Below are positions 1,541-46,576 of a stretch of DNA of 46,576 bases, piece by piece (the first letter of the stretch is position 1; every line of letters starts with the position of its first letter). Source of the DNA: a virus; the IMG/VR virus record IMGVR_UViG_3300025732_000004; one strand, 5' to 3'. A program made the position numbers and the translations under genes. Below the pieces are notes generated by a model. It was not told where the DNA came from. It made no database searches and worked only from the letters and a program-made list of their open reading frames with translations.

Positions 1541-1551
1541 CCGAGGTTGCC
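1541..1551 (-). promoter_or_regulatory. Leader motif copy GGCAACCTCGG, 20 nt upstream of the scaffold GTG
   Basis: Read on the minus strand. Confidence 0.45.
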
Positions 1552-4220: not shown

Positions 4221-4233
4221 CCGAGGTTTCCGG
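4221..4233 (-). promoter_or_regulatory. Leader motif, exact CCGGAAACCTCGG (extended form CCGGAAACCTCGGTAACACCC), 8 nt upstream of the portal GTG
   Basis: Read on the minus strand. Confidence 0.55.
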
Positions 4234-6010: not shown

Positions 6011-6235
6011 TGCGTGCGTAGGTAGTAAGTGGGGGTTGGTTATATCTAGGAGGCGCGGGGTATGGCTCTCCCCGCCGCGGCCGTTTGCCCGGGGGCAGGC
6101 CGGCGCCCGCGGCGCCCGCGGCGCCCGTGGCGCAAGCGATCCCGGCGGCTGCGCCTACTAGTGGCGGAGACTAATGCGGCTGGCGCGGTGTCAGAAACCC
6201 GGCGCGGATTGTCTGCGCGATCCGCGGCGCGGATA

Positions 6236-9953: not shown

Positions 9954-9973
9954 GCGTTACGCTATGTTTCCCC
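9954..9973 (-). promoter_or_regulatory. Leader motif copy GGGGAAACATAGCGTAACGC, 10 nt upstream of ATG 9943
   Basis: Read on the minus strand; aligns with the tail-tube copy GGGAAACCTAGCGGTAACCC. Confidence 0.5.
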
Positions 9974-19027: not shown

Positions 19028-19129
19028 CGCCTGTGGCTGCCTAGGCAAGCTCGGGGGTGCGCCCGGTTGGGATGACCCCTGAGACTCGGCTCCAGCGGCT
19101 GCAGGCGGCGCTGGAGATCGCCCAGCGCC

Positions 19130-19719: not shown

Positions 19720-19973
19720 ACGCGCCGGACCTCGTGAACCAGCCACCCCACTACAAGGAGGGTGCGGTGGAGTGCATCACTGCGCTTGAATCTGCGCTGG
19801 GACGCGATGCCTTCATCGGTTACTGCCAGGGGAACTGCATCAAGTACCTGTGGCGCTGGAAACACAAGGGCGGAATGCAAGATCTGCATAAAGCTCGCTG
19901 GTATCTAGACCGTCTGATCGCTGCTGCTGCTGCTGCTGCCGTATCAGACACTGACGCACCGAGGTGGCCATGA
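19707..19973 (+). CDS. DUF3310 (SaV-like) protein
   Basis: PPHYKEGAVECI...GNCIKYLWRWKHKGGMQDLHKARWYLDRLI matches the family signature. Confidence 0.75.
   Translation: MGALNAPDLVNQPPHYKEGAVECITALESALGRDAFIGYCQGNCIKYLWRWKHKGGMQDLHKARWYLDRLIAAAAAAAVSDTDAPRWP
19920..19937 (+). repeat. (GCT)6 microsatellite encoding a poly-Ala run
   Basis: gctgctgctgctgctgct read directly; with the following GCC it gives seven Ala. Confidence 0.9.
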
Positions 19974-23130: not shown

Positions 23131-23290
23131 CATCACCCGCTGCCACGGCATCGACTGCCACCAGAAACACCAGTGCGCCAGGCACACCGCGCCGGTCCCC
23201 GACAACGTGCTGTTGTCTTGGGTTGCCACATTGAACCCTGAGCGAGCGCACCTCTGCCCTGACTTCATCGCCACCCGCTCCGCTGACTAA
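23120..23290 (+). CDS. Small Cys/His-rich protein (about 56 aa, ...SDITRCHGIDCHQKHQCARH...LCPDF)
   Basis: My translation. Its stop TAA shares one nt with the sigma ATG (TAATG). Not in the track. Confidence 0.4.
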   Translation: MLSDITRCHGIDCHQKHQCARHTAPVPDNVLLSWVATLNPERAHLCPDFIATRSAD

Positions 23291-24405
23291 TGACAACCCG
23301 CCAGCCTCAGACCAAATCATCCATCTCTCAGTACCTCAACGAGATTGGGGCGCATCCGCTGATGTCACCCAGTGAGGAGATTGAGTGCGGCAGAGCCGTG
23401 AAGCGCATGACAGAGCTGAAACAGGAGGCGCAAGAACGCACCCTCACCAGCAAAGAGCGCCACGCCATCCGCCGCGGCGAACGCGCCAAGAAGCGTTTCA
23501 TCGAAGCCAACCTGCGGCTGGTGGTGCATTGCGCCAAGAAGTACGCCCGCAACTCGCTCCAGTTCACCGAGCTGGGCGACCTCATCCAAGAGGGCTCAAT
23601 CGGCTTGGTGCGGGCGGTGGAGCTGTTTGACCCCGAACGCGGCTACAAGTTCTCCACCTACGCCTACTGGTGGATCCGCCAGGCGATGACCCGCTCTATC
23701 GCTGTCACGGAGTGGGCCATCAAACGCCCATCCACCGTGGGAGAGCTGGCGATGCGGCTGCCCAAGCTGGTGCATACGCTCTCGCACGAGCTGGGGCGGA
23801 CGCCGACCTCCGCTGAGATCGCCAAGGCGGCCAAGGTTTCACTGAGCGAGCTGAACCTGATGTACGAACGGGGGCGGGGGCTGGTGTCCCTTGACGCCTC
23901 CGTCTTGGATCGCGAAGACGGCAGCGGCCTTATCGAGATCATCGCGGACCCCGCCTCCTTCAACAGCGAAGACAACGACGCCGCTCTGGATCTGGAGCTG
24001 AACGAGGCGCGGCTCATTCCCGTCATCGATCAGCTCACCGACGTGGAGCGCCGCATCGTTGAGCTGCGCTATGGGCTCAACGGCAATCAGCCGCAGGCGC
24101 TCAACGCCATCGGCAGGGAGATCGGCGTGTCACGGGAGCGCATCCGGCAGGTGCTGGAGCGGTCCATTCGCCGGATGCGCTTCCTGCTCAATCAGCCTGT
24201 GCTGCCCGGTAACCGTACAGACGAAGCACCAGCCGTAGAAGCCACGGAACACGCGCCGGAACGCAGTAATCAGGCGCTATGGGGGCATCTTGTGCTGGAG
24301 GGGTTGCCGCTTGCGACTCGTAAAGCACAGTGGCAATCTCCAGCTCCGCAATACGGTGCGTGGCCTTCTTCACAATGCTCTGATACAGCATCAGTTGCTG
24401 CGTGA
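23290..24405 (+). CDS. Sigma-70 family sigma factor with regions 1.2, 2, 3 and 4
   Basis: YLNEIGAHPLMSPSEE (region 1.2), FIEANLRLVVHCAKKY...DLIQEGSIGLVRAVELFDPERGYKFSTYAYWWIRQA (region 2), LTDVERRIVELRYGL...IGREIGVSRERIRQVLERSIRRMR (region 4). About 70 codons follow region 4.2. Confidence 0.9.
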   Translation: MTTRQPQTKSSISQYLNEIGAHPLMSPSEEIECGRAVKRMTELKQEAQERTLTSKERHAIRRGERAKKRFIEANLRLVVHCAKKYARNSLQFTELGDLIQEGSIGLVRAVELFDPERGYKFSTYAYWWIRQAMTRSIAVTEWAIKRPSTVGELAMRLPKLVHTLSHELGRTPTSAEIAKAAKVSLSELNLMYERGRGLVSLDASVLDREDGSGLIEIIADPASFNSEDNDAALDLELNEARLIPVIDQLTDVERRIVELRYGLNGNQPQALNAIGREIGVSRERIRQVLERSIRRMRFLLNQPVLPGNRTDEAPAVEATEHAPERSNQALWGHLVLEGLPLATRKAQWQSPAPQYGAWPSSQCSDTASVAA

Positions 24406-26515: not shown

Positions 26516-26528
26516 CCAAGGTTTCCCC
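26516..26528 (-). promoter_or_regulatory. Leader motif copy GGGGAAACCTTGG, 18 nt upstream of the holin ATG
   Basis: Read on the minus strand, in the fibre-holin gap. Confidence 0.45.
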
Positions 26529-29462: not shown

Positions 29463-29882
29463 TCAGGCCAATGTCAGGATGCCAGCAGCGTCCCAGGTGA
29501 TCGTGAAGGTTTCGCCGTTCAGCAGGTCAACGGCCGCACCGTAGTCGTACCAGCCGATCAGTTCGTCGTTGGTGGCAGTGTCGTTGTAAAGCACGACGTA
29601 GCGGAACGTCGGCACCGTGCCGGTGGCAGTCAGCACCAGATCGTTGGCGTCCAGCTTGTAGGTGCCGCTGGTCTGAGCGGAAGTTACGCCGGCTAGGTTG
29701 CGGCCGGTGGTCGTGCCGTTCTGGATGTTGGTATAGCTGATCTGGGTAATGTTGCTCAGCTGCGTGTTGGTCGCCAGCGGAGCGCTGTTGGTCAAGGCCA
29801 CCGTGAGGGTGTCGCTGCCGAGGTTGTGGGTCTTCTCGGCCAGTGCCTCAACGAAGGACTGGAACTTGTTGAAGGTGGCCAT
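29463..29882 (-). CDS. Small tail-module protein (139 aa), paralog of 34367..34798
   Basis: The C-terminal halves align: YNDTATNDELIGWYDYGAAVDLLNGETFTITWDAAGILTLA against FNDTNANDPPLAFIDFGGSQTAGDGTQFKIVWNASGIFTFTVA. Confidence 0.65.
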   Translation of the reverse strand: MATFNKFQSFVEALAEKTHNLGSDTLTVALTNSAPLATNTQLSNITQISYTNIQNGTTTGRNLAGVTSAQTSGTYKLDANDLVLTATGTVPTFRYVVLYNDTATNDELIGWYDYGAAVDLLNGETFTITWDAAGILTLA

Positions 29883-29903: not shown

Positions 29904-29915
29904 CCCTAAGTTGCC
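29904..29915 (-). promoter_or_regulatory. Leader motif copy GGCAACTTAGGG, 21 nt upstream of ATG 29882
   Basis: Read on the minus strand. Confidence 0.4.
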
Positions 29916-29920
29916 CGCGC

Positions 29921-30376
29921 TCAAAAGCCGACCGAGACGTTGAACTCAGCCACCGTGCCGGTCACCGCCAGGATCTTGACCCATACATAGGCGCCGGATG
30001 GCACTGGCTGATTCTGAAGCGTGGCGCTGTCGCCGGTGGTGGTGTTCGTCACCGTGTCCGTCGTCGCCAGCGTGCCAGCCGTCGTGCGGTCCGCGCCATA
30101 ACGCAGCTCATACTCCACACTGCCGCTGCTCACCAGTGCCGTAACGCTGGTGATGGTGGTTTCTGCCACGGTGCGGAAGAACGTGAAGCTGTCGCCCACC
30201 TGAGGGCCAGCAATCGTGATGCTGCGCGGCAGCGACGGGGCTGCCGGACCCTGCGGGCCGGGGGTAGCGACCTCAAGCGTTACGGGGGCAGCCGGTGCCG
30301 TTAGCTCAATGACCTGCTCCGATACCTGCTGCACCAGCACATGGCCGGTGCTCACCAGCTCAACGCTGTTGCTCAT
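29921..30376 (-). CDS. Small tail-module protein (151 aa) with a short PGPQGPA collagen-like element
   Basis: ORF with Thr/Val/Ser-rich, beta-type composition. Confidence 0.6.
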   Translation of the reverse strand: MSNSVELVSTGHVLVQQVSEQVIELTAPAAPVTLEVATPGPQGPAAPSLPRSITIAGPQVGDSFTFFRTVAETTITSVTALVSSGSVEYELRYGADRTTAGTLATTDTVTNTTTGDSATLQNQPVPSGAYVWVKILAVTGTVAEFNVSVGF

Positions 30377-30720
30377 GGCGTCGTAAAGCCCTCACTCGGG
30401 CGCACCAGTCCCTCCAAGTAATACTCGCGGAGACCGCTCGGGTTCACCAGCATCACGTCGTAGTGCGCGTAGCCGCCCAGCGGCAACGTGGCGGTGATGG
30501 CATAGGGCAGCTTCAGCTGCACCGCGCCGGTGGCAGCGCTCGTGACCGTCACCACAAAGTCGCCGTACTTGTTCGCGCGGTCCTTGTCCCAGCAGCTGGC
30601 GTACACGCTCCAGCCGGTGAGGTTGATGCCGGTGCCGGTGGAGTCCTTGAACTGGAGCGTCAGCACGTAGTCCGCCCGGCGCTGGGGGCGGATGTTGTAC
30701 GTGGCGGGCGAGACGGGCAT
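30373..30720 (-). CDS. Small Ig-like/beta-sandwich tail-module protein (115 aa)
   Basis: The pattern ...DSTGTGINLTGWSVYA...ATGAVQLKLPYAITATLPLGGYAHYDVML resembles BppU-type Ig-like domains (from memory). Confidence 0.5.
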   Translation of the reverse strand: MPVSPATYNIRPQRRADYVLTLQFKDSTGTGINLTGWSVYASCWDKDRANKYGDFVVTVTSAATGAVQLKLPYAITATLPLGGYAHYDVMLVNPSGLREYYLEGLVRPSEGFTTP

Positions 30721-30722
30721 AG

Positions 30723-30733
30723 CCGAGATTGCC
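30723..30733 (-). promoter_or_regulatory. Leader motif copy GGCAATCTCGG, 2 nt upstream of ATG 30720
   Basis: Read on the minus strand. Confidence 0.45.
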
Positions 30734-34366: not shown

Positions 34367-34798
34367 TCAAGCCACCGTGAAGGTGAAGATGCCCGAGGCG
34401 TTCCAGACGATCTTGAACTGGGTGCCGTCGCCAGCTGTCTGGCTACCGCCGAAGTCGATGAACGCCAGCGGGGGGTCGTTGGCGTTTGTGTCGTTGAACA
34501 AAATGCCGTAGGACGCTGTGAGGTTCCCGCCGCTGGCCGTCCAGGTCACGTCGTCTGCGTCAAACTTGGCGTCGTTGGTGGTGACGGTGCTCACCGCCAC
34601 GTTGGCGAGGGCCTGACCCCCAGTGGTGTAGCCGTTGGCGCCAGCGACCTCAGTGCCACCGGTCGCGGCCAGAGTGGTGTTGGTGGCGTCGAAGGTGGCA
34701 GCGGTCAGCAGCTTGACCTTGTAGGTGTGACTCACTGCGAAGCTGCCGTCCGCAAACTTGGCTGCCGTGTGGTTGTAGACGCTGATTGTGACGGCCAT
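34367..34798 (-). CDS. Small tail-module protein (143 aa), paralog of 29463..29882
   Basis: See the alignment under 29463..29882. Confidence 0.65.
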   Translation of the reverse strand: MAVTISVYNHTAAKFADGSFAVSHTYKVKLLTAATFDATNTTLAATGGTEVAGANGYTTGGQALANVAVSTVTTNDAKFDADDVTWTASGGNLTASYGILFNDTNANDPPLAFIDFGGSQTAGDGTQFKIVWNASGIFTFTVA

Positions 34799-34806
34799 GT
34801 AGCGGA

Positions 34807-34826
34807 CGCTTTGCCGCTAGGTTGCC
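34807..34826 (-). promoter_or_regulatory. Leader motif copy GGCAACCTAGCGGCAAAGCG, 8 nt upstream of ATG 34798
   Basis: Read on the minus strand, in the 30-nt gap after the 1217-aa gene. Confidence 0.5.
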
Positions 34827-38482: not shown

Positions 38483-39234
38483 CAGAGGATCTGTAGCACT
38501 GTCAGAGTCACGTTGTAACGGGTGGTCTTCACACCGGACACCACCGCAACCTCAGCCGTTGAGGTCGGGGGGCTGATCGGGAACCAACTGCCCGCACTCG
38601 GCACTGCGCCAATGGTGCTGTCGTACCACGCCAGCAAGTTGGGGTAGGTGCCGCTGGAGATGTAGCCCTCCACTTGGCGAACCTTGTGCGCCACCAGCGG
38701 CCCCGTGACGTAGCTGGTGCCTGTTGCGGTCAGCGCCACGTTCGGACCGTCCTGGCGGGTGTCCATGGGCTTGGTCAGCGTCACCGTGACTGCGGTGCCG
38801 CCACTGCCAAAGGTGATCGTGCCGAGGTTGGGCTTGTCCTTGTCTTTGTCCTTCTCGATGCCGCGCAGCAGCACCTGCAGCGCTTGAGCGGCATCCACCA
38901 TCACCACCGTGGCGGAGACAAAGGCGCCGGCTTGCTCACCAGATGGTGGGTCCGCAAACCAACAGGCGAGGTTGGTGACGCTCAGGTTGTTGGTGTTGGT
39001 GATCGTCAGCGCGATCGTGGTGCCGACCACGCCGGAGAGCAGCGTGTCCTGATCCTGGATGCGGGTGCTGCGCCAGCTGTTGTACTCGCTCACCAGCGTC
39101 TGCCACTCGGCGGGGGTGAGCAGACCGCTGATGCGGAATGTGCGGGCGGTGAGGCCGGAGCGGGCTTCACCCTCGTAGCCGAAGGGCTGGGCCGTCAGGC
39201 GGTTGGTGCTGAAGCTGCCGATTGTGACTGTCAT
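38482..39234 (-). CDS. Distal tail protein candidate (250 aa; ATG 39234 overlaps the tape-measure stop, ATGA)
   Basis: Position immediately after the tape measure. Confidence 0.45.
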   Translation of the reverse strand: MTVTIGSFSTNRLTAQPFGYEGEARSGLTARTFRISGLLTPAEWQTLVSEYNSWRSTRIQDQDTLLSGVVGTTIALTITNTNNLSVTNLACWFADPPSGEQAGAFVSATVVMVDAAQALQVLLRGIEKDKDKDKPNLGTITFGSGGTAVTVTLTKPMDTRQDGPNVALTATGTSYVTGPLVAHKVRQVEGYISSGTYPNLLAWYDSTIGAVPSAGSWFPISPPTSTAEVAVVSGVKTTRYNVTLTVLQIL

Positions 39235-42200
39235 TGGACTGCAGAGTTGAGGACGTTGCCAAAGGTCGTAACGCCGCCGCCCGAATCGACGTTCACAGTG
39301 ACCGCCCACGTCTTCTCGGCGAGCTTGCCAACCTGCTTTGCCAAGACACTGTTGACGCCCAGCAGCTCTTTGTTAATAGCTGCAACGTCGGCTTGTGCGG
39401 TTGAGAGGTTATTCCTGCTTTCGTTCTCTTTTTGTACGGCAGTAATAAAGTCGTCAACCTTCTTGAAGCTTGCTACGGATGCGTCTGGGCCGGCAGCGCC
39501 AAAAAAGGGTTTGCCGTTGATAGTGCCGAACTGCTTCTTATCGCCGCGAGAGCCGGCAATAATGCTGCGTAGCTCATTGATCAGACTGTTATCAAGACTG
39601 AGCCCTTGTTCCTTTAGTATCTTGGATGCTATTGATATGGAACGTTCAAGATCCGGGCCAAGGCGTGCGGTGGCTGTATTTAGCCTGACCTGCCGTTGTT
39701 CTGGGCGCAAGAACCGATTAAGCCCCTCGTCAGGATTGGCTTGGATGCCTGATAGCTCAAGCCGTGCTTGCGTCAGGCGATTTGCTGCGCCGGTCACAAC
39801 GTCAGCGATTTGGCGGGCGCCATCAACCATTGCAGTCTTAAAAGCAATCGCAGCAGCTACAAGCTCCTTGCCAGCGGCAAGTTGTTCTGGGCGTGAAGCC
39901 TTTGGATCGTTCAGGAGATTAGAGTAGTTGGTAAAGGCTGCCTGCCTGTCCTTTCGTGCGGCGTCAATAGTGGCCCGGATGTTGTTGATTTCTTGAACTG
40001 GGGCGGGCTTTAGGCGCTCAACCTGCTGCCTTAAATAAGCTCTGCGCTCTTCTTGGTTGGCAAACAGGTCTTTCTTGGCTTGCTCGCGAATGCTGGCGGC
40101 CTTGCTGGGGTTATCTTTGATGGCAAGATCACGGTCGCGAATGATCTTTTGCTGTTGCAGGTAGAACAGCTGGAGCTTGTACCCCTGCGCGGTGGCTTGG
40201 GTGATCCTGTAGTCCAGTTGGCTGGCAGCAGCTCTCTCCTTTGCCAGAGCAACGGCGCGGGCCTCAAGGGCGTTGATCTCCTGCTGAGTTCGGCGCTGAC
40301 GGTCAGCGATGACCCCACGCTGCCGTGCTTCGTCTAGCGCAACCTTGTTGGCGGTTTCGACATCAGGGACAACCTTAAAAGCGGCTAGCGTATTACGTCT
40401 CAGCAGAATCTGAGCCGCGGCCTGTTGACCATACTGAGCTTTAACGTCATCAACAGTTGTACGAAAATCTCCCTCCCCTATGCGCTGATTAGCTCCGGGC
40501 CCTGTGGGTTTACCCCCTAAGGCGCGATTTAGCACTCCCAGCAAAGCCGCCATTGGTCCTGCTACTAGCTTTGCTGTGGTAACTCCCAGCTCCGAGTAGG
40601 TGCGGTTCAACTCGTCCTGAGCTGCGGCCAGATTATTGATTTCCTTGGTGCTGCCAAAACGCTTGACAAAGTCTATTTGGATCTGGAGCGCAGCCTCTGC
40701 TGTCTTTCCGTTATCAATAAGGTTCTGGATATTCTTCTCAACAGCACGCGACGACAGTAGAGCGGCTTCCTTAAGTGCCTGGAAGCTTTCTACTGGCTTG
40801 TTTAACGCGTCGCCAATGGTCTTCAGCTTGGCAAGGGCGGCATCAAACTGGGCGCCAACGGCGGTGCCGAGCAGCGACAGTCCAAAGCCAAAGTTTCCGC
40901 CCAGCTTGCCGCCGGTGAAGCCGCCCAAGCTACCGCCCAAGCTGGCGCCCAGACCTTGACCAAATAGCAGCGGGAATGCGCCACCAATCAGGGCGTCGCC
41001 CAGTGCAGCATTGGAACGCTGCGCACCCTGCAGCCGACGCTGCGCACCCTGCAGCCGACGCTGCCGCGCCAGATCCGCAGGTGAGCCTGGAATCACTTGT
41101 CCGTTAATCAGGCGTCCGCTGACGGGGATCGCTGGACCTCGTATCTGAGCTTGCGTTGCTTGCCGGGCAATGTCTGCTGGTGAGCCCGGTATCACGCGCC
41201 CGTTGATCAGGCGCCCAGAAACGGGTAGCGATGGGCCACCACGACGCTCAAGGTCGCGTTGAGCTTTGGCTTGCGCTTGTGTTGCGGCTAGCTTTTCTCT
41301 CGCAACGGTCAGCTGGTCACGGAGCTGTTGCGTGATCTGTTTGGCCGTGCCAAGTTCACCAGTCCTAAGTGCACTATCTAGATCTGCGTATAGCTTCTTG
41401 ATCTGCGTTACATCAGCGCCTTGGCGTTGAAGTTGTAGCCCTGCTGCGCCAATGCTCAACTGCGCCGATTGCAGCGAAGCTCTTGTCGCTAAGGAGCTAG
41501 CGGGGCCACCCTGCCCGGCGCGGCGTGCTTCTTGGCGACGCTGCTCCTCAAGAAACGCTGGTGAGCCAGGTAGATCCTTGCGACCACGAATGGGCTCGCT
41601 AGGCCCACCGACTCGGGCAGCGCGATCCGTCAGACGCTGCAGTTCGCGGGTGCGGCGGAGGCGCGCCTCGGTCAGCGTCACTTGCTGTCCAAGCTGAGCA
41701 GTGATCTGACGGGCGCTGCCAAACTGGCGCTCAGCTAATGCGGTATCAAGCTGCGCCAGCCGAATCTGGAGCGCCCCCACATTTGCGCCTTGCTGCTGCA
41801 GCCGCGCAATTCGCTGGTCAAGTGCGAATCGACGCTGCTGAGCACGCTCGTTTGCCAACAGTGACTCCGAAGCGCCGCCCTGACGCGCACCACGATCCAA
41901 GATCTGGCGGCGCAGACGCTCCCGGGCTTCTAGAAACGCCGGAGAGCCAGGGATGTTTCGGCTGCCGCGAATAGAGTCACGCGGACCTCCAGCAGTAGCC
42001 GATGCTCTGAGCTGGCGTTCTTCGCGACGGCGCTGCTCCGCAAGGAACCGCGGAGATCCGGGGAGGTCAAGCCGCCCTTGGATGGGCTCGCGGGGGCCTC
42101 CGAGCCGAGCTGTGCGCTCAACTGCACGCTGAACATCGCGCTCACGCCGAGCGCGTGCTTCCGTCAAAGTGACTTGCCGCTCCAGCTCACGGGACAGCTG

Positions 42201-42911
42201 GCGGGCAGTTCCGAACTGACGCTGCGCATAGGAGGTGGTCAGCTCGCCCAGCTGGCGCCGGAGCGACTGTGTTGCGACACCACGCTCCTCAAGCCGCTCA
42301 ATTCGCTGCGAAATCTTGAAGCGGCGATCCTGCGCTCGCTCCAACGCAAAGATTGACTCGCGGGCTCCCCCCATCGCAGCACCGACCGCTGCGTTCTGGC
42401 GCTGCACACGCTCCTGACGCCGGAGGGTAGCTAATCGGCGCTCCTCCAACGTGATCTGGCGGGCTAGCTCCTGCCCACGCTGCCGGAATGACCCAAACTG
42501 ACGGCGGGATTGCGCCTCGGTCAAAGCGCCCAGTTGGACGCGCAGACGGGCGACATTGGCGCCCTGCTCCTCCAGCGTGTCAATCCGCCGGGCCAGGCGG
42601 AACCGGCGCTCTTGCGCAATCTCTAGGGCGCGTACACCTTCACGCGCACCACCCTGTCGCGCTGCTCGGTCAATGCGCCGTTGCTCCTCTGCGTCTGCCC
42701 TACGGCGACGCCGATCCGCAGCTTCTTGTTGACGCTGCTGGCGGTTGATCTCGTTGGCAGCAGCGCTGGCAGAAGAACGGGTTTGGCCAGGACGCCCAGT
42801 GACGTCGCCCAGCTGCTGCTGAATTAGCTGACGCGCCTGCCGAAGGCTCTCCTCAAACGCACGGATGTCAACTGTTAGCCGTAGCTGAGCCTCGCCTAGG
42901 TTCTCCGCCAC
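39231..42911 (-). CDS. Tape measure protein (1226 aa)
   Basis: Very long, Arg/Gln/Ala/Leu-rich and coiled-coil-like, with modular repeats. It has a Gly-rich hydrophobic block GGAFPLLFGQGLGASLGGSLGGFTGGKLGGNFGFGLSLLG and lies upstream of the tail-tip genes. Confidence 0.85.
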   Translation of the reverse strand: MAENLGEAQLRLTVDIRAFEESLRQARQLIQQQLGDVTGRPGQTRSSASAAANEINRQQRQQEAADRRRRRADAEEQRRIDRAARQGGAREGVRALEIAQERRFRLARRIDTLEEQGANVARLRVQLGALTEAQSRRQFGSFRQRGQELARQITLEERRLATLRRQERVQRQNAAVGAAMGGARESIFALERAQDRRFKISQRIERLEERGVATQSLRRQLGELTTSYAQRQFGTARQLSRELERQVTLTEARARRERDVQRAVERTARLGGPREPIQGRLDLPGSPRFLAEQRRREERQLRASATAGGPRDSIRGSRNIPGSPAFLEARERLRRQILDRGARQGGASESLLANERAQQRRFALDQRIARLQQQGANVGALQIRLAQLDTALAERQFGSARQITAQLGQQVTLTEARLRRTRELQRLTDRAARVGGPSEPIRGRKDLPGSPAFLEEQRRQEARRAGQGGPASSLATRASLQSAQLSIGAAGLQLQRQGADVTQIKKLYADLDSALRTGELGTAKQITQQLRDQLTVAREKLAATQAQAKAQRDLERRGGPSLPVSGRLINGRVIPGSPADIARQATQAQIRGPAIPVSGRLINGQVIPGSPADLARQRRLQGAQRRLQGAQRSNAALGDALIGGAFPLLFGQGLGASLGGSLGGFTGGKLGGNFGFGLSLLGTAVGAQFDAALAKLKTIGDALNKPVESFQALKEAALLSSRAVEKNIQNLIDNGKTAEAALQIQIDFVKRFGSTKEINNLAAAQDELNRTYSELGVTTAKLVAGPMAALLGVLNRALGGKPTGPGANQRIGEGDFRTTVDDVKAQYGQQAAAQILLRRNTLAAFKVVPDVETANKVALDEARQRGVIADRQRRTQQEINALEARAVALAKERAAASQLDYRITQATAQGYKLQLFYLQQQKIIRDRDLAIKDNPSKAASIREQAKKDLFANQEERRAYLRQQVERLKPAPVQEINNIRATIDAARKDRQAAFTNYSNLLNDPKASRPEQLAAGKELVAAAIAFKTAMVDGARQIADVVTGAANRLTQARLELSGIQANPDEGLNRFLRPEQRQVRLNTATARLGPDLERSISIASKILKEQGLSLDNSLINELRSIIAGSRGDKKQFGTINGKPFFGAAGPDASVASFKKVDDFITAVQKENESRNNLSTAQADVAAINKELLGVNSVLAKQVGKLAEKTWAVTVNVDSGGGVTTFGNVLNSAVQ
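41017..41058 (-). repeat. Perfect 21-bp tandem duplication inside the tape measure (encodes RRLQGAQ twice)
   Basis: cgctgcgcaccctgcagccga occurs twice (41017-41037 and 41038-41058), followed by a partial third unit. Confidence 0.9.
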
Positions 42912-42934
42912 GTCTACCGGTTGGGGCCTGTATT

Positions 42935-42945
42935 GCGAGATTGCC
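42935..42945 (-). promoter_or_regulatory. Leader motif copy GGCAATCTCGC, 23 nt upstream of the tape-measure GTG
   Basis: Read on the minus strand; sits back-to-back with the plus-strand copy at 42947. Confidence 0.45.
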
Positions 42946-42946
42946 G

Positions 42947-42959
42947 CCGGAAACCTCGG
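42947..42959 (+). promoter_or_regulatory. Leader motif, exact CCGGAAACCTCGG, 2 nt upstream of ATG 42962
   Basis: Read directly. Confidence 0.55.
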
Positions 42960-42961
42960 TC

Positions 42962-43351
42962 ATGGCTTCCGCTCTCTCCGCTTTATCCAACGCCACCGCC
43001 ACTTTTCAGGTGGCGGGCACGGGCGTGGTCACTGACCCGGAAACAGGGAACGTGTCGCCCGCGGGAGCCACGGTCACAGTGGCGTTGTTCCTGAGCGCCG
43101 CACAGACGCGGGTGCTGCGGTACCCAGGAGTTGATACCACGGAGACCGTCTACGAAGGCTATGCCTTGGACGCGCTAGACCCTCGTATTGAGATCGGCGT
43201 TACAGGTGTCCTGACGTTTGCGGGGGAGCCGACGCTTGATTGCGAAGTGCGCTCTGTTCGTCTGCCTTACGGGAAGACGGGGCTGCTCGGCGAGACCCTC
43301 AACAGCGTGCTTGGCGAGAAGGTGCAGCTGGTGAGCAGAGGCCAAGCGTGA
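42962..43351 (+). CDS. Hypothetical head-tail joining-region protein (129 aa from ATG 42962; the track TTG start is 42941)
   Basis: ORF with good composition, in the opposite orientation to the surrounding structural genes. Confidence 0.55.
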   Translation: MASALSALSNATATFQVAGTGVVTDPETGNVSPAGATVTVALFLSAAQTRVLRYPGVDTTETVYEGYALDALDPRIEIGVTGVLTFAGEPTLDCEVRSVRLPYGKTGLLGETLNSVLGEKVQLVSRGQA

Positions 43352-43836
43352 CGGTCGCCATCAAGCAGTGGAACGCCGCAAGGTTGCTAGCGAAAGTTGC
43401 AACCACGCTTGAGAAGTCCGGTGCCGTCTACAGCGAGACGGCAGTGCTACAGATGTCCAACCCCATATGGGACTGGGACTGGGCGACGCTGCGCTATGAA
43501 AGCCTGTTGATGGGGGGTACGCGTGAGCCCGGTCGTCTTGGCGTAATCGTTGGTAAGGGGCCGCGGGACATCGTAGATACAGGGCGCCTGCTGGATTCGA
43601 TGACGAAACCACTCGTGATCCGAGAGCGAGGCAAAGCGTCTATGGTCATTGCGTGGACAGCTCCTTATGCCGAGCGGGTGCGGACCGGTGGGTATTACGG
43701 TTCCTACATCAACCCGCGTGGCCAAGAAGTCACTGTCGGCTACAGGCCGGGCCGCGATTGGATCGCCGCCACCTTCAAAGCCAGGCCGGCAGAGCGGGTG
43801 TTTGCCGACATCTGGCGCAGTTTCAAGGGCACATAA
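43348..43836 (+). CDS. HK97 gp10-like neck/tail-completion protein (162 aa; GTG 43348 overlaps the upstream stop)
   Basis: GPRDIVDTGRLLDSM resembles the P-x-D-T-G-x-L-x-x-S signature of the HK97 gp10 family. Confidence 0.5.
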   Translation: MTVAIKQWNAARLLAKVATTLEKSGAVYSETAVLQMSNPIWDWDWATLRYESLLMGGTREPGRLGVIVGKGPRDIVDTGRLLDSMTKPLVIRERGKASMVIAWTAPYAERVRTGGYYGSYINPRGQEVTVGYRPGRDWIAATFKARPAERVFADIWRSFKGT

Positions 43837-43839
43837 AAA

Positions 43840-43870
43840 GGCCAGCCCCCACGCTGGGAAGGGGCTAGCC
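43840..43870 (-). terminator. Terminator after the tail tube gene (bidirectional position)
   Basis: ggccagcccc (43840-43849) pairs with ggggctagcc (43861-43870) with one mismatch. The aaaaa at 43835-43839 becomes a U-run after the hairpin on the minus strand. Confidence 0.5.
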
Positions 43871-43898
43871 ATCAGAGTCCCGAGTCCCTTGGCTTAGA

Positions 43899-44375
43899 TC
43901 AGACGTTGGTCTCTGCGGTCCAAGTGTAGGCGCCGTAGCCGGTGAGAGTGAAGCTCACCTGGGCAATGTTGCCGGCTTGGATGTCCTCAGAGAAGTCGGT
44001 TACGAACGCAACGCCGGCGTGCTTCTCTGGGTTGCCGGTGGCGCTCATCTCGGGCGACTCGCGATACCACTCCACCGTCTTGGTGCTGGAGTTGAGTGCC
44101 GCGTCCTTCAGAATGGCGTAGCCGGCGTCATTCAGGTCCAGGTTCATCTGGCACGGAATGCTGTAGCTCTGCGATACCGGAATCTGGGCCTTGAAGCCCT
44201 GGGTCGAGCCGTAGTCCAGCACTTCCTGGGTGTCGGTGCTGCCTTGGATGCCGGCATTCACCAGCGACAGCACCTCGGTCATGCCGGTGCTAGTCGTTGG
44301 TGCGGTGCTGGAGGTGGTGCCAGCCTTCACGTAAAACTTATACCCCAGCGAGGCAAAAAAGGCGCCGGTGGCCAT
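43899..44375 (-). CDS. Major tail (tube) protein
   Basis: 158 aa with beta-rich composition, lying between the connector-region genes and the tape measure. It has a strong terminator downstream, as the capsid gene does. Confidence 0.55.
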   Translation of the reverse strand: MATGAFFASLGYKFYVKAGTTSSTAPTTSTGMTEVLSLVNAGIQGSTDTQEVLDYGSTQGFKAQIPVSQSYSIPCQMNLDLNDAGYAILKDAALNSSTKTVEWYRESPEMSATGNPEKHAGVAFVTDFSEDIQAGNIAQVSFTLTGYGAYTWTAETNV

Positions 44376-44390
44376 TGGTGGGTCGGGAAC

Positions 44391-44410
44391 GGGTTACCGC
44401 TAGGTTTCCC
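44391..44410 (-). promoter_or_regulatory. Leader motif copy GGGAAACCTAGCGGTAACCC, 15 nt upstream of the tail tube ATG
   Basis: Read on the minus strand, in the 36-nt gap. Confidence 0.55.
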
Positions 44411-44411
44411 T

Positions 44412-44966
44412 CTAGGCGCAGTCCTCGGCTTCCAAAACGTCCCATGGCGTGGGGCGGGGGCAGACGTAGAGGTCGAAGCCGCGCACGTCGTGGTCTGTGG
44501 GGCTGGTGGCCACTAGCGCCAACTTCACCTGCTCCTGCGTCACGCCCAGCTCTATGCACACCTCGGGCAGGGCGCGGCCACGCTCCAGCATCTTTCGCGC
44601 CAGCTGCCCGATCCGGCGTACAGCGCCTGGCGCCTTCACAGACCAGTTGCCGTCCCGGATGAAGTGCAGCACGTCGCCCTCGCTGAAGGCGGTGAGGAGC
44701 GTGGAGAAGCGGCCCTTGGCGGGGTCGAAGGCGCGGCAGCACTTCACAAACGCTTGGTCAATGCAGCTAAAGACGTCGCTGCTATCGACGAAGGGGTACT
44801 TGCGGCACAGCTTGCGGCCCAGCAGGCGCAACAGCCCTTGGTGTTCGCGGTACATCCGCGCCACATGGCGCTGCTCTTCCGGTGTCAGTGGCGTGGCTAA
44901 GTAACCGGTGCGGGGGCGTCGCCGGACCGGTTGAGCACTACCTGTAGTGGGGGTGCAGTTTGCCAT
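44412..44966 (-). CDS. Sigma-70 region 2/region 3-like protein lacking region 4 (184 aa)
   Basis: LLRLLGRKLCRKYPFVDSSDVFSCIDQAFVKCCRAFDPAKGRFSTLLTAFSEGDVLHFIRDGNWSVKAP...GRALPEVCIELGVTQEQV aligns with regions 2 and 3 of the 371-aa sigma in this window (LVVHCAKKY...[21 protein letters not shown]...IKRPS...GRTPTSAEIAKAAKVS). The protein ends before any region 4. Confidence 0.6.
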   Translation of the reverse strand: MANCTPTTGSAQPVRRRPRTGYLATPLTPEEQRHVARMYREHQGLLRLLGRKLCRKYPFVDSSDVFSCIDQAFVKCCRAFDPAKGRFSTLLTAFSEGDVLHFIRDGNWSVKAPGAVRRIGQLARKMLERGRALPEVCIELGVTQEQVKLALVATSPTDHDVRGFDLYVCPRPTPWDVLEAEDCA

Positions 44967-44997
44967 CCACTACCCATAGTAGCGGCTAGATGCGTAC

Positions 44998-45567
44998 CTA
45001 ACTGCGTTGGACTGCGCAGACGCCACCTAGCCCGCCGCGGGTCGTGCTGGTGCATAGGCAGCCCAAGATGGTGGCGAGGTGCGGCAGCACTGTCAGGGGC
45101 GTCACCGCCTCGGTCGTGGAGTTACCGACGTTGGTATTCCACTCAAGCTCCATGACGTCGAGCTTCAGGCGCTTCAGGTCGCGGTTGGGGATGCCGGGCA
45201 CCAGCGCGGTAGAGGCGTTGGCGCTCCGCAGCAGCGTCGGTGTCGTCAGCAGCGCATTGGCGAGGTCAAACGTCGCTAGCTCGATCTCGCGGGGGATCTC
45301 GTCGTCAGCGGGGGCCTTGTCGCCGCACTCGGCGTCGGTGCGGGGCCACGACAGCGCTTGTGTCGGAGTGGCGCGGTCGCCGATCCAGCTCAGCGTCTCT
45401 AGGCCGTTGGTGGCGGTGATCAGGGCGCGGGCTTTGTCGTCGCTGGTGGCGGTGCTCCACGCCAAGGTGCCCAACATGCCGTTGGCGATGCTGTCGGCAC
45501 CGGCGACGCTCAGGTAGCTGTTGGCGCTGGCGCTGCCGGCAGTCGCAACAATCGCAGGGGCGGGCAT
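44998..45567 (-). CDS. Head-tail connector/adaptor protein
   Basis: N-terminal ...ANSYLSVAGADSIA...W...DDKARALITATNGLE...LSWPR resembles gp6-like/DnaT_2-type head-tail adaptors. The position also fits. Confidence 0.5.
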   Translation of the reverse strand: MPAPAIVATAGSASANSYLSVAGADSIANGMLGTLAWSTATSDDKARALITATNGLETLSWIGDRATPTQALSWPRTDAECGDKAPADDEIPREIELATFDLANALLTTPTLLRSANASTALVPGIPNRDLKRLKLDVMELEWNTNVGNSTTEAVTPLTVLPHLATILGCLCTSTTRGGLGGVCAVQRS

Positions 45568-45582
45568 CGCTTTGCGTTATTC

Positions 45583-45595
45583 CCGAGGTTTCCGG
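45583..45595 (-). promoter_or_regulatory. Leader motif, exact CCGGAAACCTCGG, 15 nt upstream of the connector ATG
   Basis: Read on the minus strand. Confidence 0.55.
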
Positions 45596-45597
45596 TG

Positions 45598-45729
45598 TCA
45601 GCCGCGGCCCTGGCCGCGCCACTTCTTGCGGCCGTGGTTCGCCTTGCTGTGCTGGCCCTGGCCTTGGCGGGTGCGCTTTGGCTTGCCCGGCACATGCTCA
45701 GTGCGGGTGGCGGCTTTGGCTTTGGCCAT
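45598..45729 (-). CDS. Very basic small protein (43 aa, MAKAKAATRTEHVPGKPKRTRQGQGQHSKANHGRKKWRGQGRG)
   Basis: My translation, verified codon by codon. Third positions are G/C-rich and the leader motif lies 9 nt upstream. Not in the track. Confidence 0.45.
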   Translation of the reverse strand: MAKAKAATRTEHVPGKPKRTRQGQGQHSKANHGRKKWRGQGRG

Positions 45730-45738
45730 GGCGTTTCC

Positions 45739-45751
45739 CCGATCTTTCCGG
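45739..45751 (-). promoter_or_regulatory. Leader motif copy CCGGAAAGATCGG, 9 nt upstream of ATG 45729
   Basis: Read on the minus strand. Confidence 0.45.
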
Positions 45752-45757
45752 TGTCGG

Positions 45758-45769
45758 GGCAACTTCGGG
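45758..45769 (+). promoter_or_regulatory. Leader motif copy GGCAACTTCGGG, 19 nt upstream of ATG 45789
   Basis: Read directly; sits back-to-back with the copy at 45739-45751. Confidence 0.45.
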
Positions 45770-45788
45770 TAGTGCTTTTGCCGCTGTA

Positions 45789-46088
45789 ATGACTGAAAAC
45801 GCCCCCGAAATCAGCAACGAGCTGGTGTCAGAAGCACCTAAGCCGGTGCGTAAGAAAGCGGCGAAGGCGGCTCCTGCGGCTGAGGGTGGTGGGAAGCGCG
45901 ACTGGCAGAAGGTGGTGCCTGAGATCCGGCGTTTGCGCGATGAAGGGCGCAATGTGCCTGAGATCGCGGAGGAGCTGGAGTTGCCCTACGTGCTCGTCAA
46001 TCAGGTGATGCTCCAGAGCTACAAGATGACCGTCAACACCATTGAGCACTTTGAGCGGCACGAAGAGCGTCGCATTGCTGGGGAGTGA
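45789..46088 (+). CDS. Small HTH protein (99 aa from MTENAPEISNE)
   Basis: VVPEIRRLRDEGRNVPEIAEELELPYVLVNQVM resembles a sigma region 4 or resolvase-type HTH. The upstream part of the track ORF (from 45678) looks non-coding. Confidence 0.5.
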   Translation: MTENAPEISNELVSEAPKPVRKKAAKAAPAAEGGGKRDWQKVVPEIRRLRDEGRNVPEIAEELELPYVLVNQVMLQSYKMTVNTIEHFERHEERRIAGE

Positions 46089-46099
46089 GGCATAAAAAA

Positions 46100-46120
46100 G
46101 CCCCCGCTTGTGGCGGGGGC
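46100..46120 (-). terminator. Rho-independent terminator after the major capsid gene (between convergent genes)
   Basis: gcccccgc (46100-46107), loop ttgtg, gcgggggc (46113-46120). The aaaaaa at 46094-46099 gives a U-run on the minus strand. Confidence 0.7.
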
Positions 46121-46136
46121 CTGAGTGATTCGCAAC

Positions 46137-46576
46137 TCAAGCGTAGGTGCCGCTGTCGTATGCCGTGTTGACGAGCATCCGCACCAGAGGCACGTTCTTG
46201 GCGTTCTGGTAAGCCAAGGCCCAAGAGCCGGTGGCGCCCAGGTTGCCGGTGGTTGCCAGGTTGCTGGGGTTGTCGCCGGCGGCGGCCCAGCGGGTGCCGT
46301 TGACGTGGTAACCGTAGTGGTAGTCCACGATCAGCAGATCCTGGAAGGACGGCTTGTTGCGGTCCGTCTCCAGACGCAGCTCCTGCTGCACACCTTCGGC
46401 AATAACGCCGGAGCCGAACAGGTACACGGGGTACTTGTTCAGGTGGGTGCTGGTGCCGCCGCTGATGACGCCCAGTTGGTCGTCAACAATGACGCGCAGG
46501 CCGGCGAAGGTGTTGTAACCGACGCCGCTCAAGCCGGAGGCAGCTGAGACGGTGGAACCGCTCACCTGCACCTGCA
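46137..46576 (-). CDS. Major capsid protein, 3' part (the non-redundant part is 46137..46449)
   Basis: ORF 46137..46571 continues the frame that starts at 764; see the feature at 1..764. Confidence 0.8.
   Translation of the reverse strand, partial: QVQVSGSTVSAASGLSGVGYNTFAGLRVIVDDQLGVISGGTSTHLNKYPVYLFGSGVIAEGVQQELRLETDRNKPSFQDLLIVDYHYGYHVNGTRWAAAGDNPSNLATTGNLGATGSWALAYQNAKNVPLVRMLVNTAYDSGTYA
46450..46576. repeat. Terminal direct repeat copy 2 (identical to 1..127)
   Basis: Same as copy 1. Confidence 0.9.

Follow-up and report, generated by a model that had tools for sequence, protein, structure and literature searches.

Two short intergenic regions in the structural module of the virus recorded as IMGVR_UViG_3300025732_000004 separate divergent genes and each carry two back-to-back copies of one asymmetric motif, which raises the question of whether this motif is a promoter and, if so, which factor reads it. 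The window, i.e. the whole stretch of DNA that was analyzed, is a complete circular phage contig of 46,576 nt (63% G+C). The exact direct repeat of 127 nt found at its ends (1-127 and 46450-46576) is the assembly overlap of the circular genome, which in reality measures 46,449 nt and whose major capsid gene spans the contig junction (764..1 joined to 46449..46137, minus strand). The long late operon lies on the minus strand and includes the genes of the terminase, portal, scaffold, capsid, head-tail adaptor, a small sigma-like protein, the major tail protein, a putative tape measure of 1226 aa, further tail proteins and endolysin. The genes encoding DNA polymerase, a primase-like protein, an integrase and a full-length sigma factor of 371 aa are located outside this operon. 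A megablast search with 6.6 kb of the window gave no match among cultured phage records; the nearest cultured relatives, detected at the protein level only, are distant cyanosiphoviruses (S-2L and KBS-S-2A for the capsid, and S-CBS1, S-CBS3 and KBS-S-2A as best cultured matches of the 371-aa sigma factor). Shine-Dalgarno sequences are almost absent among the predicted gene starts of the window, which are typically preceded by C-rich stretches (e.g. ...ccATG). Since the large sigma factor and the capsid are cyanosiphovirus-like and Shine-Dalgarno sequences are nearly absent, the host is probably a picocyanobacterium; the host labels of the metagenome bins disagree (Rhodoferax, Limnohabitans and Cyanobacteriota).

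The motif has a core of 11 nt, GG[A/C]AA-N-Y-T-[A/C]-G-[G/C], whose consensus can also be written GGMAAYCTMGG. Its invariant positions include A4, A5, T8 and G10. The pattern GGMAANNTCGG has nine matches in the window compared to 0.75 expected, a number that none of 100 shuffles reaches. With the relaxed pattern GG[AC]AA..T[CA]G, 16 matches were found; in 13 of them, a predicted start on the same strand follows within 35 nt. A weight matrix (PWM) sets apart 14 strong sites and a weaker one that precedes the lysis cassette (Table 1). Besides the portal, scaffold, adaptor, tail tube and tape-measure genes, the 43-aa ORF and several tail genes, the sites precede the lysis genes, both inverted cassettes and two other genes. 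They are found in gene orientation upstream of late genes, at the heads of transcription units, and copies come after conserved terminators. Their distance from the start codon varies from 2 to 23 nt overall and from 8 to 23 nt at genes other than the two that show a spacing of 2 nt. The T9 variant carried by the weaker copy also occurs at orthologous putative promoters in relatives. The gene following the putative tape measure probably starts at 39234, as indicated by synteny with relatives. A search of the literature for the motif strings returned only unrelated primer sequences.

Table 1. Motif copies, sigma factor genes, terminators and inverted genes of the window (PWM, weight-matrix score of the motif copy)
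Feature	Position	Strand	Context	PWM
Motif copy, scaffold gene	1541..1551	-	upstream of scaffold gene (GTG 1520)	17.0
Motif copy, portal gene	4221..4231	-	upstream of portal gene (GTG 4212)	20.7
Motif copy, 200-aa gene	9961..9971	-	upstream of 200-aa gene (ATG 9943)	16.8
Motif copy past DNA polymerase stop	19044..19054	+	17 nt upstream of 44-aa ORF (ATG 19072)	14.7
Full-length 371-aa sigma factor	23290..24405	+	regions 1.2, 2, 3 and 4	
GGAAACCTTGG, weaker copy	26516..26526	-	upstream of lysis cassette (ATG 26497)	10.8
Motif copy, 139-aa gene	29905..29915	-	upstream of 139-aa phrog_644 paralogue (ATG 29882)	17.7
GGCAATCTCGG	30723..30733	-	2 nt before ATG 30720 (115-aa phrog_1084 gene)	19.0
Motif copy, 143-aa gene	34816..34826	-	upstream of 143-aa phrog_644 gene (ATG 34798)	
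Motif-like copy, uncertain status	39319..39329	-	within 3' end of putative tape-measure gene	15.2
GGCAATCTCGC	42935..42945	-	faces putative tape-measure gene (GTG 42911), 23 nt upstream of start	14.5
CCGGAAACCTCGG	42947..42959 (core 42949-42959)	+	faces 129-aa gene; ATG 42962 2 nt after	19.4
Two inverted genes (129 aa and 162 aa)	42962..43836	+	between tail tube and tape-measure genes; conserved, independently called in relatives	
Terminator-like hairpin and T-run	43842..43857	-	after major tail protein gene stop; ends adaptor-sigma-tail tube unit before gap 1	
GGAAACCTAGC	44399..44409	-	faces major tail protein gene (ATG 44375)	16.0
184-aa sigma-70-family protein	44412..44966	-	domains 2 and 3, no domain 4; between adaptor and tail-tube genes	
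CCGGAAACCTCGG, second occurrence	45583..45595	-	faces head-tail adaptor gene (ATG 45567), 15 nt upstream	21.2
CCGGAAAGATCGG	45739..45751 (core 45739-45749)	-	faces 43-aa basic ORF (ATG 45729), 9 nt upstream	18.2
GGCAACTTCGGG	45758..45769 (core 45758-45768)	+	faces 99-aa HTH-like gene (ATG 45789), 20 nt upstream	17.8
Inverted 99-aa gene	45789..46088	+	C-terminal half HTH-like; in nearly all relatives, motif-less ones included	
Intrinsic terminator	46098..46122	-	directly after capsid gene stop; flanked by A and T runs; ends head transcript before gap 2	

The two gaps measure 50 nt (gap 1, 42912-42961) and 59 nt (gap 2, 45730-45788). The four motif copies that the sequence-only reading had reported in them were all recovered, at the same positions and on the same strands. 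Its claim that pairs occupy both divergent gaps of the structural module also holds: two of the four divergent junctions of the window carry a pair, both inside this module, and no motif pair is present at the other two (5938/6419 and 16835/16965). The gene model of gap 1 was kept, since the plus-strand genes 42962-43351 and 43348-43836 are protein-like and the gene calls in relatives agree. We rejected the idea that they are shadows of minus-strand tail chaperones: the ORFs of the minus strand are not protein-like, whereas the plus-strand genes are conserved and independently called. Two gene labels given earlier call for caution. For the tape measure, size and position agree with the label and a significant family match was not found; for the 99-aa protein, the fold resembles HTH domains, but all matches have E values above 0.6, so that HTH-like remains a weak assignment. 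Furthermore, the earlier argument that divergent genes must each own a promoter in the gap between them was too strong. In distant relatives (L037-L078; e.g. L039 near 4080 and L062 near 6130), there is no gap at this place: the HTH-like gene and a divergent, small and conserved plus-strand ORF overlap at their start codons (CATG), and promoters must therefore lie inside coding sequence in these genomes.

What requires transcription to start in the two gaps is the presence of terminators. The capsid gene of the window is directly followed by a strong intrinsic terminator (46098-46122), probably a bidirectional one, and 24 of 25 distinct relatives also have a terminator at this place, with different stem sequences. 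GC-rich hairpins are also found after the tail-tube gene in most relatives, 11 of 26 passing a strict hairpin-plus-T rule. Each inverted cassette thus has a terminator at its convergent end and a motif pair at its divergent end. Since terminators are conserved after the capsid and the tail-tube genes, the late genes located downstream must re-initiate at the two gaps. Read-through into these genes is possible in principle, and it is these conserved terminators, not the geometry alone, that rule it out here. A scan for the sigma-70 promoter consensus from 39000 to 46576 found no candidates. RNA folding of both gaps, on both strands, revealed no stability beyond that of shuffles (z from -0.6 to +1.6), and a structural-RNA or hairpin role of the inverted pairs was therefore dropped.

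Relatives were collected by retrieving 373 viral contigs with the capsid protein, 80 of which were kept; six extra loci were added by means of distant homologues of the 184-aa sigma factor. Both back-to-back pairs are kept in dozens of uncultured relatives whose flanks have diverged. In the alignments of 15 relatives made for each gap, the invariant non-coding columns are those of the motif, other invariant columns being found only in tape-measure codons or flanks. The copy facing the tape-measure gene reads GGCAA[T/C]CTCGG in these 15 relatives, with seven of 11 columns invariant and an eighth conserved in at least 90%, and the GGCAAC of the copy facing the HTH-like gene is invariant in 15 relatives. 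By contrast, the spacer between the paired copies varies among orthologous pairs (1, 2, 3, 5, 6, 7, 8 or 19 bp). This variation indicates that each copy acts alone and that a pair is not one palindromic operator; the operator of a dimeric HTH regulator was rejected on this ground, as it would need a fixed spacing of half-sites. Moreover, since the copies are only 1-19 bp apart, two polymerases could not occupy both at once.

Gap 2 also shows some features of its own. The 43-aa basic ORF (phrog_516) is found in few relatives only (L003, L004 and L007) and looks like an inserted small gene that would have brought or duplicated a promoter. The minus-strand copies upstream of the adaptor gene (45583-45600) and of the 43-aa ORF (45739-45756) have the upstream flank gACACC in common.

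The surroundings of the core resemble those of a transcription start site that depends on a single element. From -25 to -1 upstream of the core, no position has an information content above 0.35 bit (87 non-redundant sites), and no conserved -35-like element was found in this interval of the same sites. Downstream, the core is followed by the patch n-T-A-W-A, positions 13-16 being T/A-rich in a G+C-rich genome. The ATG of the 129-aa gene is located exactly 2 nt past the 11-mer in 12 of 15 relatives, and the same core-to-ATG spacing is found at the unrelated gene 30373-30720 in all motif-bearing orthologous contexts (8/8). This abutment at ATG 42962 and ATG 30720 corresponds to the geometry of leaderless mRNAs, and transcripts that start there would be leaderless. 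A spacing that is generally variable but fixed at 2 nt at abutted ATGs only fits a promoter that produces some leaderless mRNAs, not a ribosome-binding signal. When the start is set at the A of the ATG, the core extends from -13 to -3, so that the A/C position, which is variable, corresponds to the canonical -11. We also tried a Shine-Dalgarno-like or start-associated element as an explanation and rejected it because of the spacing of 2-23 nt, of the lack of any GGAGG-type sequence in the core and of the separate AGGAGG found downstream in relatives.

This AGGAGG is located about 12 nt upstream of the tape-measure GTG in many relatives (alignment A2, columns 60-68), directly after the predicted start site. 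It has been lost in the window, which has ACAGGCCCC instead. The first tape-measure codons of the window, GTG GCG GAG AAC CTA GGC (42894-42911, minus strand), spell the motif-like GAGAACCTAGG; the invariant CT.GG columns seen at the tape-measure start of relatives are most simply explained by a conserved Leu-Gly.

The window encodes two sigma factors, the smaller of which lies within the late operon. This 184-aa protein matches phrog_351 (E 1.6e-8), and its family profile matches sigma-B of Staphylococcus aureus (8x6g_H; E 1e-6 over residues 27-150, i.e. domains 2 and 3). Its AlphaFold model has a mean pLDDT of 79 and each of the top 50 Foldseek matches is a sigma factor; several homologues of the protein are annotated with PF04542. 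Sigma domain 2 (regions 2.1-2.4) is therefore detected in this ORF both by sequence and by fold, which places it in the sigma-70 family, where it resembles group-3 factors of the sigma-B and sigma-F type. Domain 4 is absent from the protein: after the three-helix domain 3, the model only has a disordered linker and one short helix, and sequence alignment with sigma-B and sigma-F does not extend beyond about residue 155-160 of 243-256. As domain 4 recognizes the -35 element, a protein devoid of it is expected to read an element of the -10 region alone, which fits the single motif of 11-16 nt. Environmental phages have more than 140 protein clusters of this small sigma-like type. Within the family (alignment A1), C68, C77, H101, H159, H167 and C169 are invariant or nearly so and the C-terminal tail CPRPTPW is conserved; these Cys/His residues and the tail could be a metal site or a partner-binding motif. 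The complete 371-aa sigma factor probably serves another class of promoters.

Comparison of loci that do or do not encode the small sigma factor links it to the motif. All 36 loci that carry its gene have motif matches (2.78 per 10 kb) compared to 0.21 per 10 kb in the 35 loci devoid of it. For example, L025-L027 have a capsid 75-77% identical to that of the window, as do many motif-bearing loci, yet they possess neither the small sigma gene nor the motif. It should be emphasized that this correlation is confounded, since the loci are phylogenetically related and the whole tail module (tail tube, inverted genes and tape measure) is swapped together with the small sigma gene. The loci devoid of this gene carry another motif, GCTARAMT, with 34 copies on the late strand versus one on the other strand, whereas loci with the small sigma gene have none on the late strand and two on the other. 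GCTARAMT resembles a sigma-70 -10 hexamer such as TAGACT (e.g. L062:6270, L075:6173 and, in L104-L112, upstream of position 1501). In sigma-less loci, it sits at the positions of the first motif upstream of the adaptor gene and of the orthologue of the 30720 gene. The latter shows the arrangement GCTAGACT-N6-ATG, a geometry that suggests leaderless transcripts in the sigma-less lineages too. The putative promoters of the head genes also change their motif along with the small sigma gene, and contigs sampled at both places agree: L001/L097 and L008/L102 carry the first motif, L052/L108 and L049/L110 GCTARAMT.

Taken together, these data make a promoter the well-supported reading of the motif, as judged from comparative sequence analysis. 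The earlier preference for a promoter over a purely translational signal is strengthened by several lines of evidence: (i) the terminators upstream of both gaps, (ii) the co-occurrence with a sigma factor lacking domain 4, (iii) the lack of any -35 element, (iv) a spacing that ranges from 2 to 23 nt but is fixed at 2 nt at abutted ATGs, and (v) the sigma-70-type -10 hexamers found at the same positions in sigma-less lineages. The 11-base signal is most likely read by the shortened sigma factor of the virus itself. In the mechanism that we propose, the motif and its n-T-A-W-A patch would form a single-element late promoter devoid of a -35 element, and its reader would be the RNA polymerase core of the host associated with the 184-aa phage sigma factor (44412-44966); as a whole, we regard this mechanism as likely. 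We infer that the small sigma factor would bind the element and that transcription would start after it, probably 3-5 nt past the 11-mer, i.e. at position 14-16 counted from the first G. The intrinsic terminators that follow the capsid and tail-tube genes would split the late region into units. Beyond each terminator lies an inverted gene cassette, with back-to-back copies of the putative promoter at its far, divergent end. In gap 2, one copy would restart late transcription of the unit comprising the 43-aa ORF and the adaptor, sigma and tail-tube genes; in gap 1, one copy would restart that of the tape-measure unit. The other copy of each pair would drive the inverted cassette. Several points count against this mechanism. 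The 184-aa sigma gene itself lies downstream of a motif copy, so that another promoter or leak-through at the terminator would be needed to prime the circuit. The variable base at the canonical -11 blurs the register of the core relative to standard -10 recognition, the paired copies are too close to be occupied simultaneously, and most of the predicted 5' leaders, with a length of only 6-21 nt, would be devoid of Shine-Dalgarno sequences.

Part of the evidence would also be compatible with a promoter read by another factor, as neither the positions of the motif nor the terminators tell which factor acts. The reader could be the 371-aa phage sigma factor, an alternative sigma factor of the host, or the host polymerase together with a motif-binding activator made by the phage, and the 184-aa protein would then do something else. 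The window does encode this second, complete sigma factor, and the co-occurrence of the motif with the small one is confounded by the co-inherited tail module. However, no -35 element is conserved, although a sigma factor endowed with domain 4 should depend on one; the small sigma gene is the sole co-inherited gene whose product has a transcription-related fold; and the promoters of the head genes switch motif together with it. We therefore consider a different reader rather unlikely. As for the 99-aa HTH-like protein in the role of specificity factor, it was discarded as unlikely, since it is also present in motif-less relatives and its HTH assignment is weak.

The two other explanations that we weighed do not involve a promoter. 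The motif could act in the RNA, either as a processing site or as an element of 5' leaders that governs translation initiation or mRNA stability (comparable to the Cluster K start-associated sequences of mycobacteriophages), with the promoters located elsewhere. Such a role would agree with the position of the motif on the coding strand, close to start codons (2-23 nt away), and with the almost complete lack of Shine-Dalgarno sequences in the phage genes. However, the spacing to the start codon is unconstrained overall, the gaps have no stable RNA structure (z from -0.6 to +1.6) and, for the motif to be part of a transcript in these gaps, the promoter would have to lie within the partner motif or within the opposite gene, nothing else being conserved there. 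Furthermore, the AGGAGG located downstream of the tape-measure copy in many relatives places the motif upstream of the ribosome-binding site, and DNA elements of the -10 type occupy the same positions in sister lineages, all of which leaves a role in the RNA very little likelihood. A similarly low likelihood can be granted to binding by a phage repressor or another regulator, e.g. the 99-aa HTH-like protein, with single copies acting like stoperators and pairs as palindromic operators. The sites are indeed asymmetric, follow the direction of transcription and occupy short intergenic spaces; an integrase is encoded by the phage; and the pairs are imperfect inverted repeats that adjoin the HTH-like gene. 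However, a distance of 1-19 bp between copies among relatives is unfit for a fixed dimer operator, the HTH-like gene is present in nearly all relatives including motif-less ones, and the sites cluster in late structural and lysis genes and right after terminators. In addition, a regulator site would leave unexplained both the fixed abutment of 2 nt at ATGs and the patch resembling a start site.

The promoter-sigma pair that we propose has counterparts among known phages. The gp36 protein of phage phiEco32 is a sigma factor devoid of region 4 that recognizes, at middle/late promoters, a single element, tAATGTAtA, with starts 6-8 bp downstream (PMC8948821; PMC12276001). Our putative system is similar in that a sigma factor without region 4 would read one element near -10, without any -35, upstream of late genes. 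It differs from phiEco32 by its promoter, which is unrelated in sequence, G+C-rich and predicted from sequence alone, by its sigma factor, which is group-3-like and keeps domain 3, and by the location of the sigma gene, which is part of the late structural operon and has the adaptor and tail-tube genes as its neighbours; no gp79-like partner was identified here. In phage T4, gp55 is a small late sigma factor of about 185 aa that reads only an A+T-rich element of the -10 region, TATAAATA, of which many copies precede late genes. It only has a domain-2-like part, and T4 late transcription also needs gp33 and the sliding clamp gp45. The 184-aa protein shares with gp55 its small size and the many single-element copies in front of late genes, but its putative element is G+C-rich and it possesses domain 3; the searches made detected no homology between the two proteins. 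The consensus GGMAAYCTMGG matches neither tAATGTAtA nor TATAAATA. The putative promoter thus resembles those of gp36 and gp55 in its working and is not a member of the same promoter family.

Two classes of repeated sites in mycobacteriophages were also compared with the motif. Start-associated sequences of Cluster K contain a Shine-Dalgarno core constrained to 3-8 nt from the start. Like them, the motif is a conserved asymmetric sequence of 11-13 nt located just upstream of a subset of start codons; unlike them, it shows no Shine-Dalgarno complementarity, has a spacing of 2-23 nt, follows terminators and co-occurs with a sigma factor. The stoperators of Cluster A (the gp71 sites of L5) are scattered over the two genome arms, where the immunity repressor binds them. 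They share with the motif an asymmetric sequence, a location in short intergenic regions and an orientation with transcription. However, the sites reported here are associated with late units, are set at a fixed distance from the ATGs that they abut, and appear to track the sigma gene instead of a repressor. The sole HTH-like gene nearby is also present in motif-less relatives and no repressor was identified.

The mechanism proposed here would add a new sequence and a new factor to a type of gene control that phages are known to use; it would overturn no principle since phage sigma factors with single-element promoters have been described before. If confirmed, it would provide a function for the conserved motif and for the small sigma-like gene of environmental phages, as well as a compact pair from a G+C-rich system, consisting of a promoter of 11-16 bp and a sigma factor of 184 aa. 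It would also offer a natural comparison between homologous late genes driven by host-type -10 elements or by a phage sigma factor, useful for understanding how phages rewire late regulons and how a -10 element alone is recognized without domain 4. This apparent natural swap, at homologous late genes, between host-type -10 promoters and a phage sigma-promoter pair is the most valuable point of the present work. A broader reading joins these elements, and we give it about even chances. In this reading, a widespread lineage of uncultured freshwater phages, probably cyanosiphovirus-like, would encode a previously uncharacterized family of sigma factors lacking domain 4, whose gene is located inside the late structural operon. 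This factor would read G+C-rich, -10-only promoters, including that of its own unit (a self-reinforcing circuit), and at least two genes would have leaderless mRNAs as a result. In sister lineages with shared head genes but devoid of the sigma gene, sigma-70-like TAGACT elements would be used at the same positions, amounting to a natural, module-linked swap of sigma factor and promoter across the whole late regulon.

Some additional observations concern other parts of the window or the relatives. No match was obtained when the window was scanned against Rfam and for tRNAs. The tail region contains two paralogous phrog_644 genes on the minus strand, 29463-29882 (139 aa) and 34367-34798 (143 aa), each with its own upstream motif copy. 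A cassette resembling a diversity-generating retroelement, with bAvd, reverse transcriptase (RVT_1) and Lcl_C-domain genes, is located between the head genes and the integrase gene in one relative (L085:6058-7802); its near-identical sibling L084 is devoid of the reverse transcriptase. In the window, a short tandem repeat, GGCGCCCGC (6080-6130), occurs in about three copies in the long non-coding region that separates the plus-strand early genes from the terminase gene, and a (CTG)n run is located directly upstream of the integrase gene (about 19925-19945).
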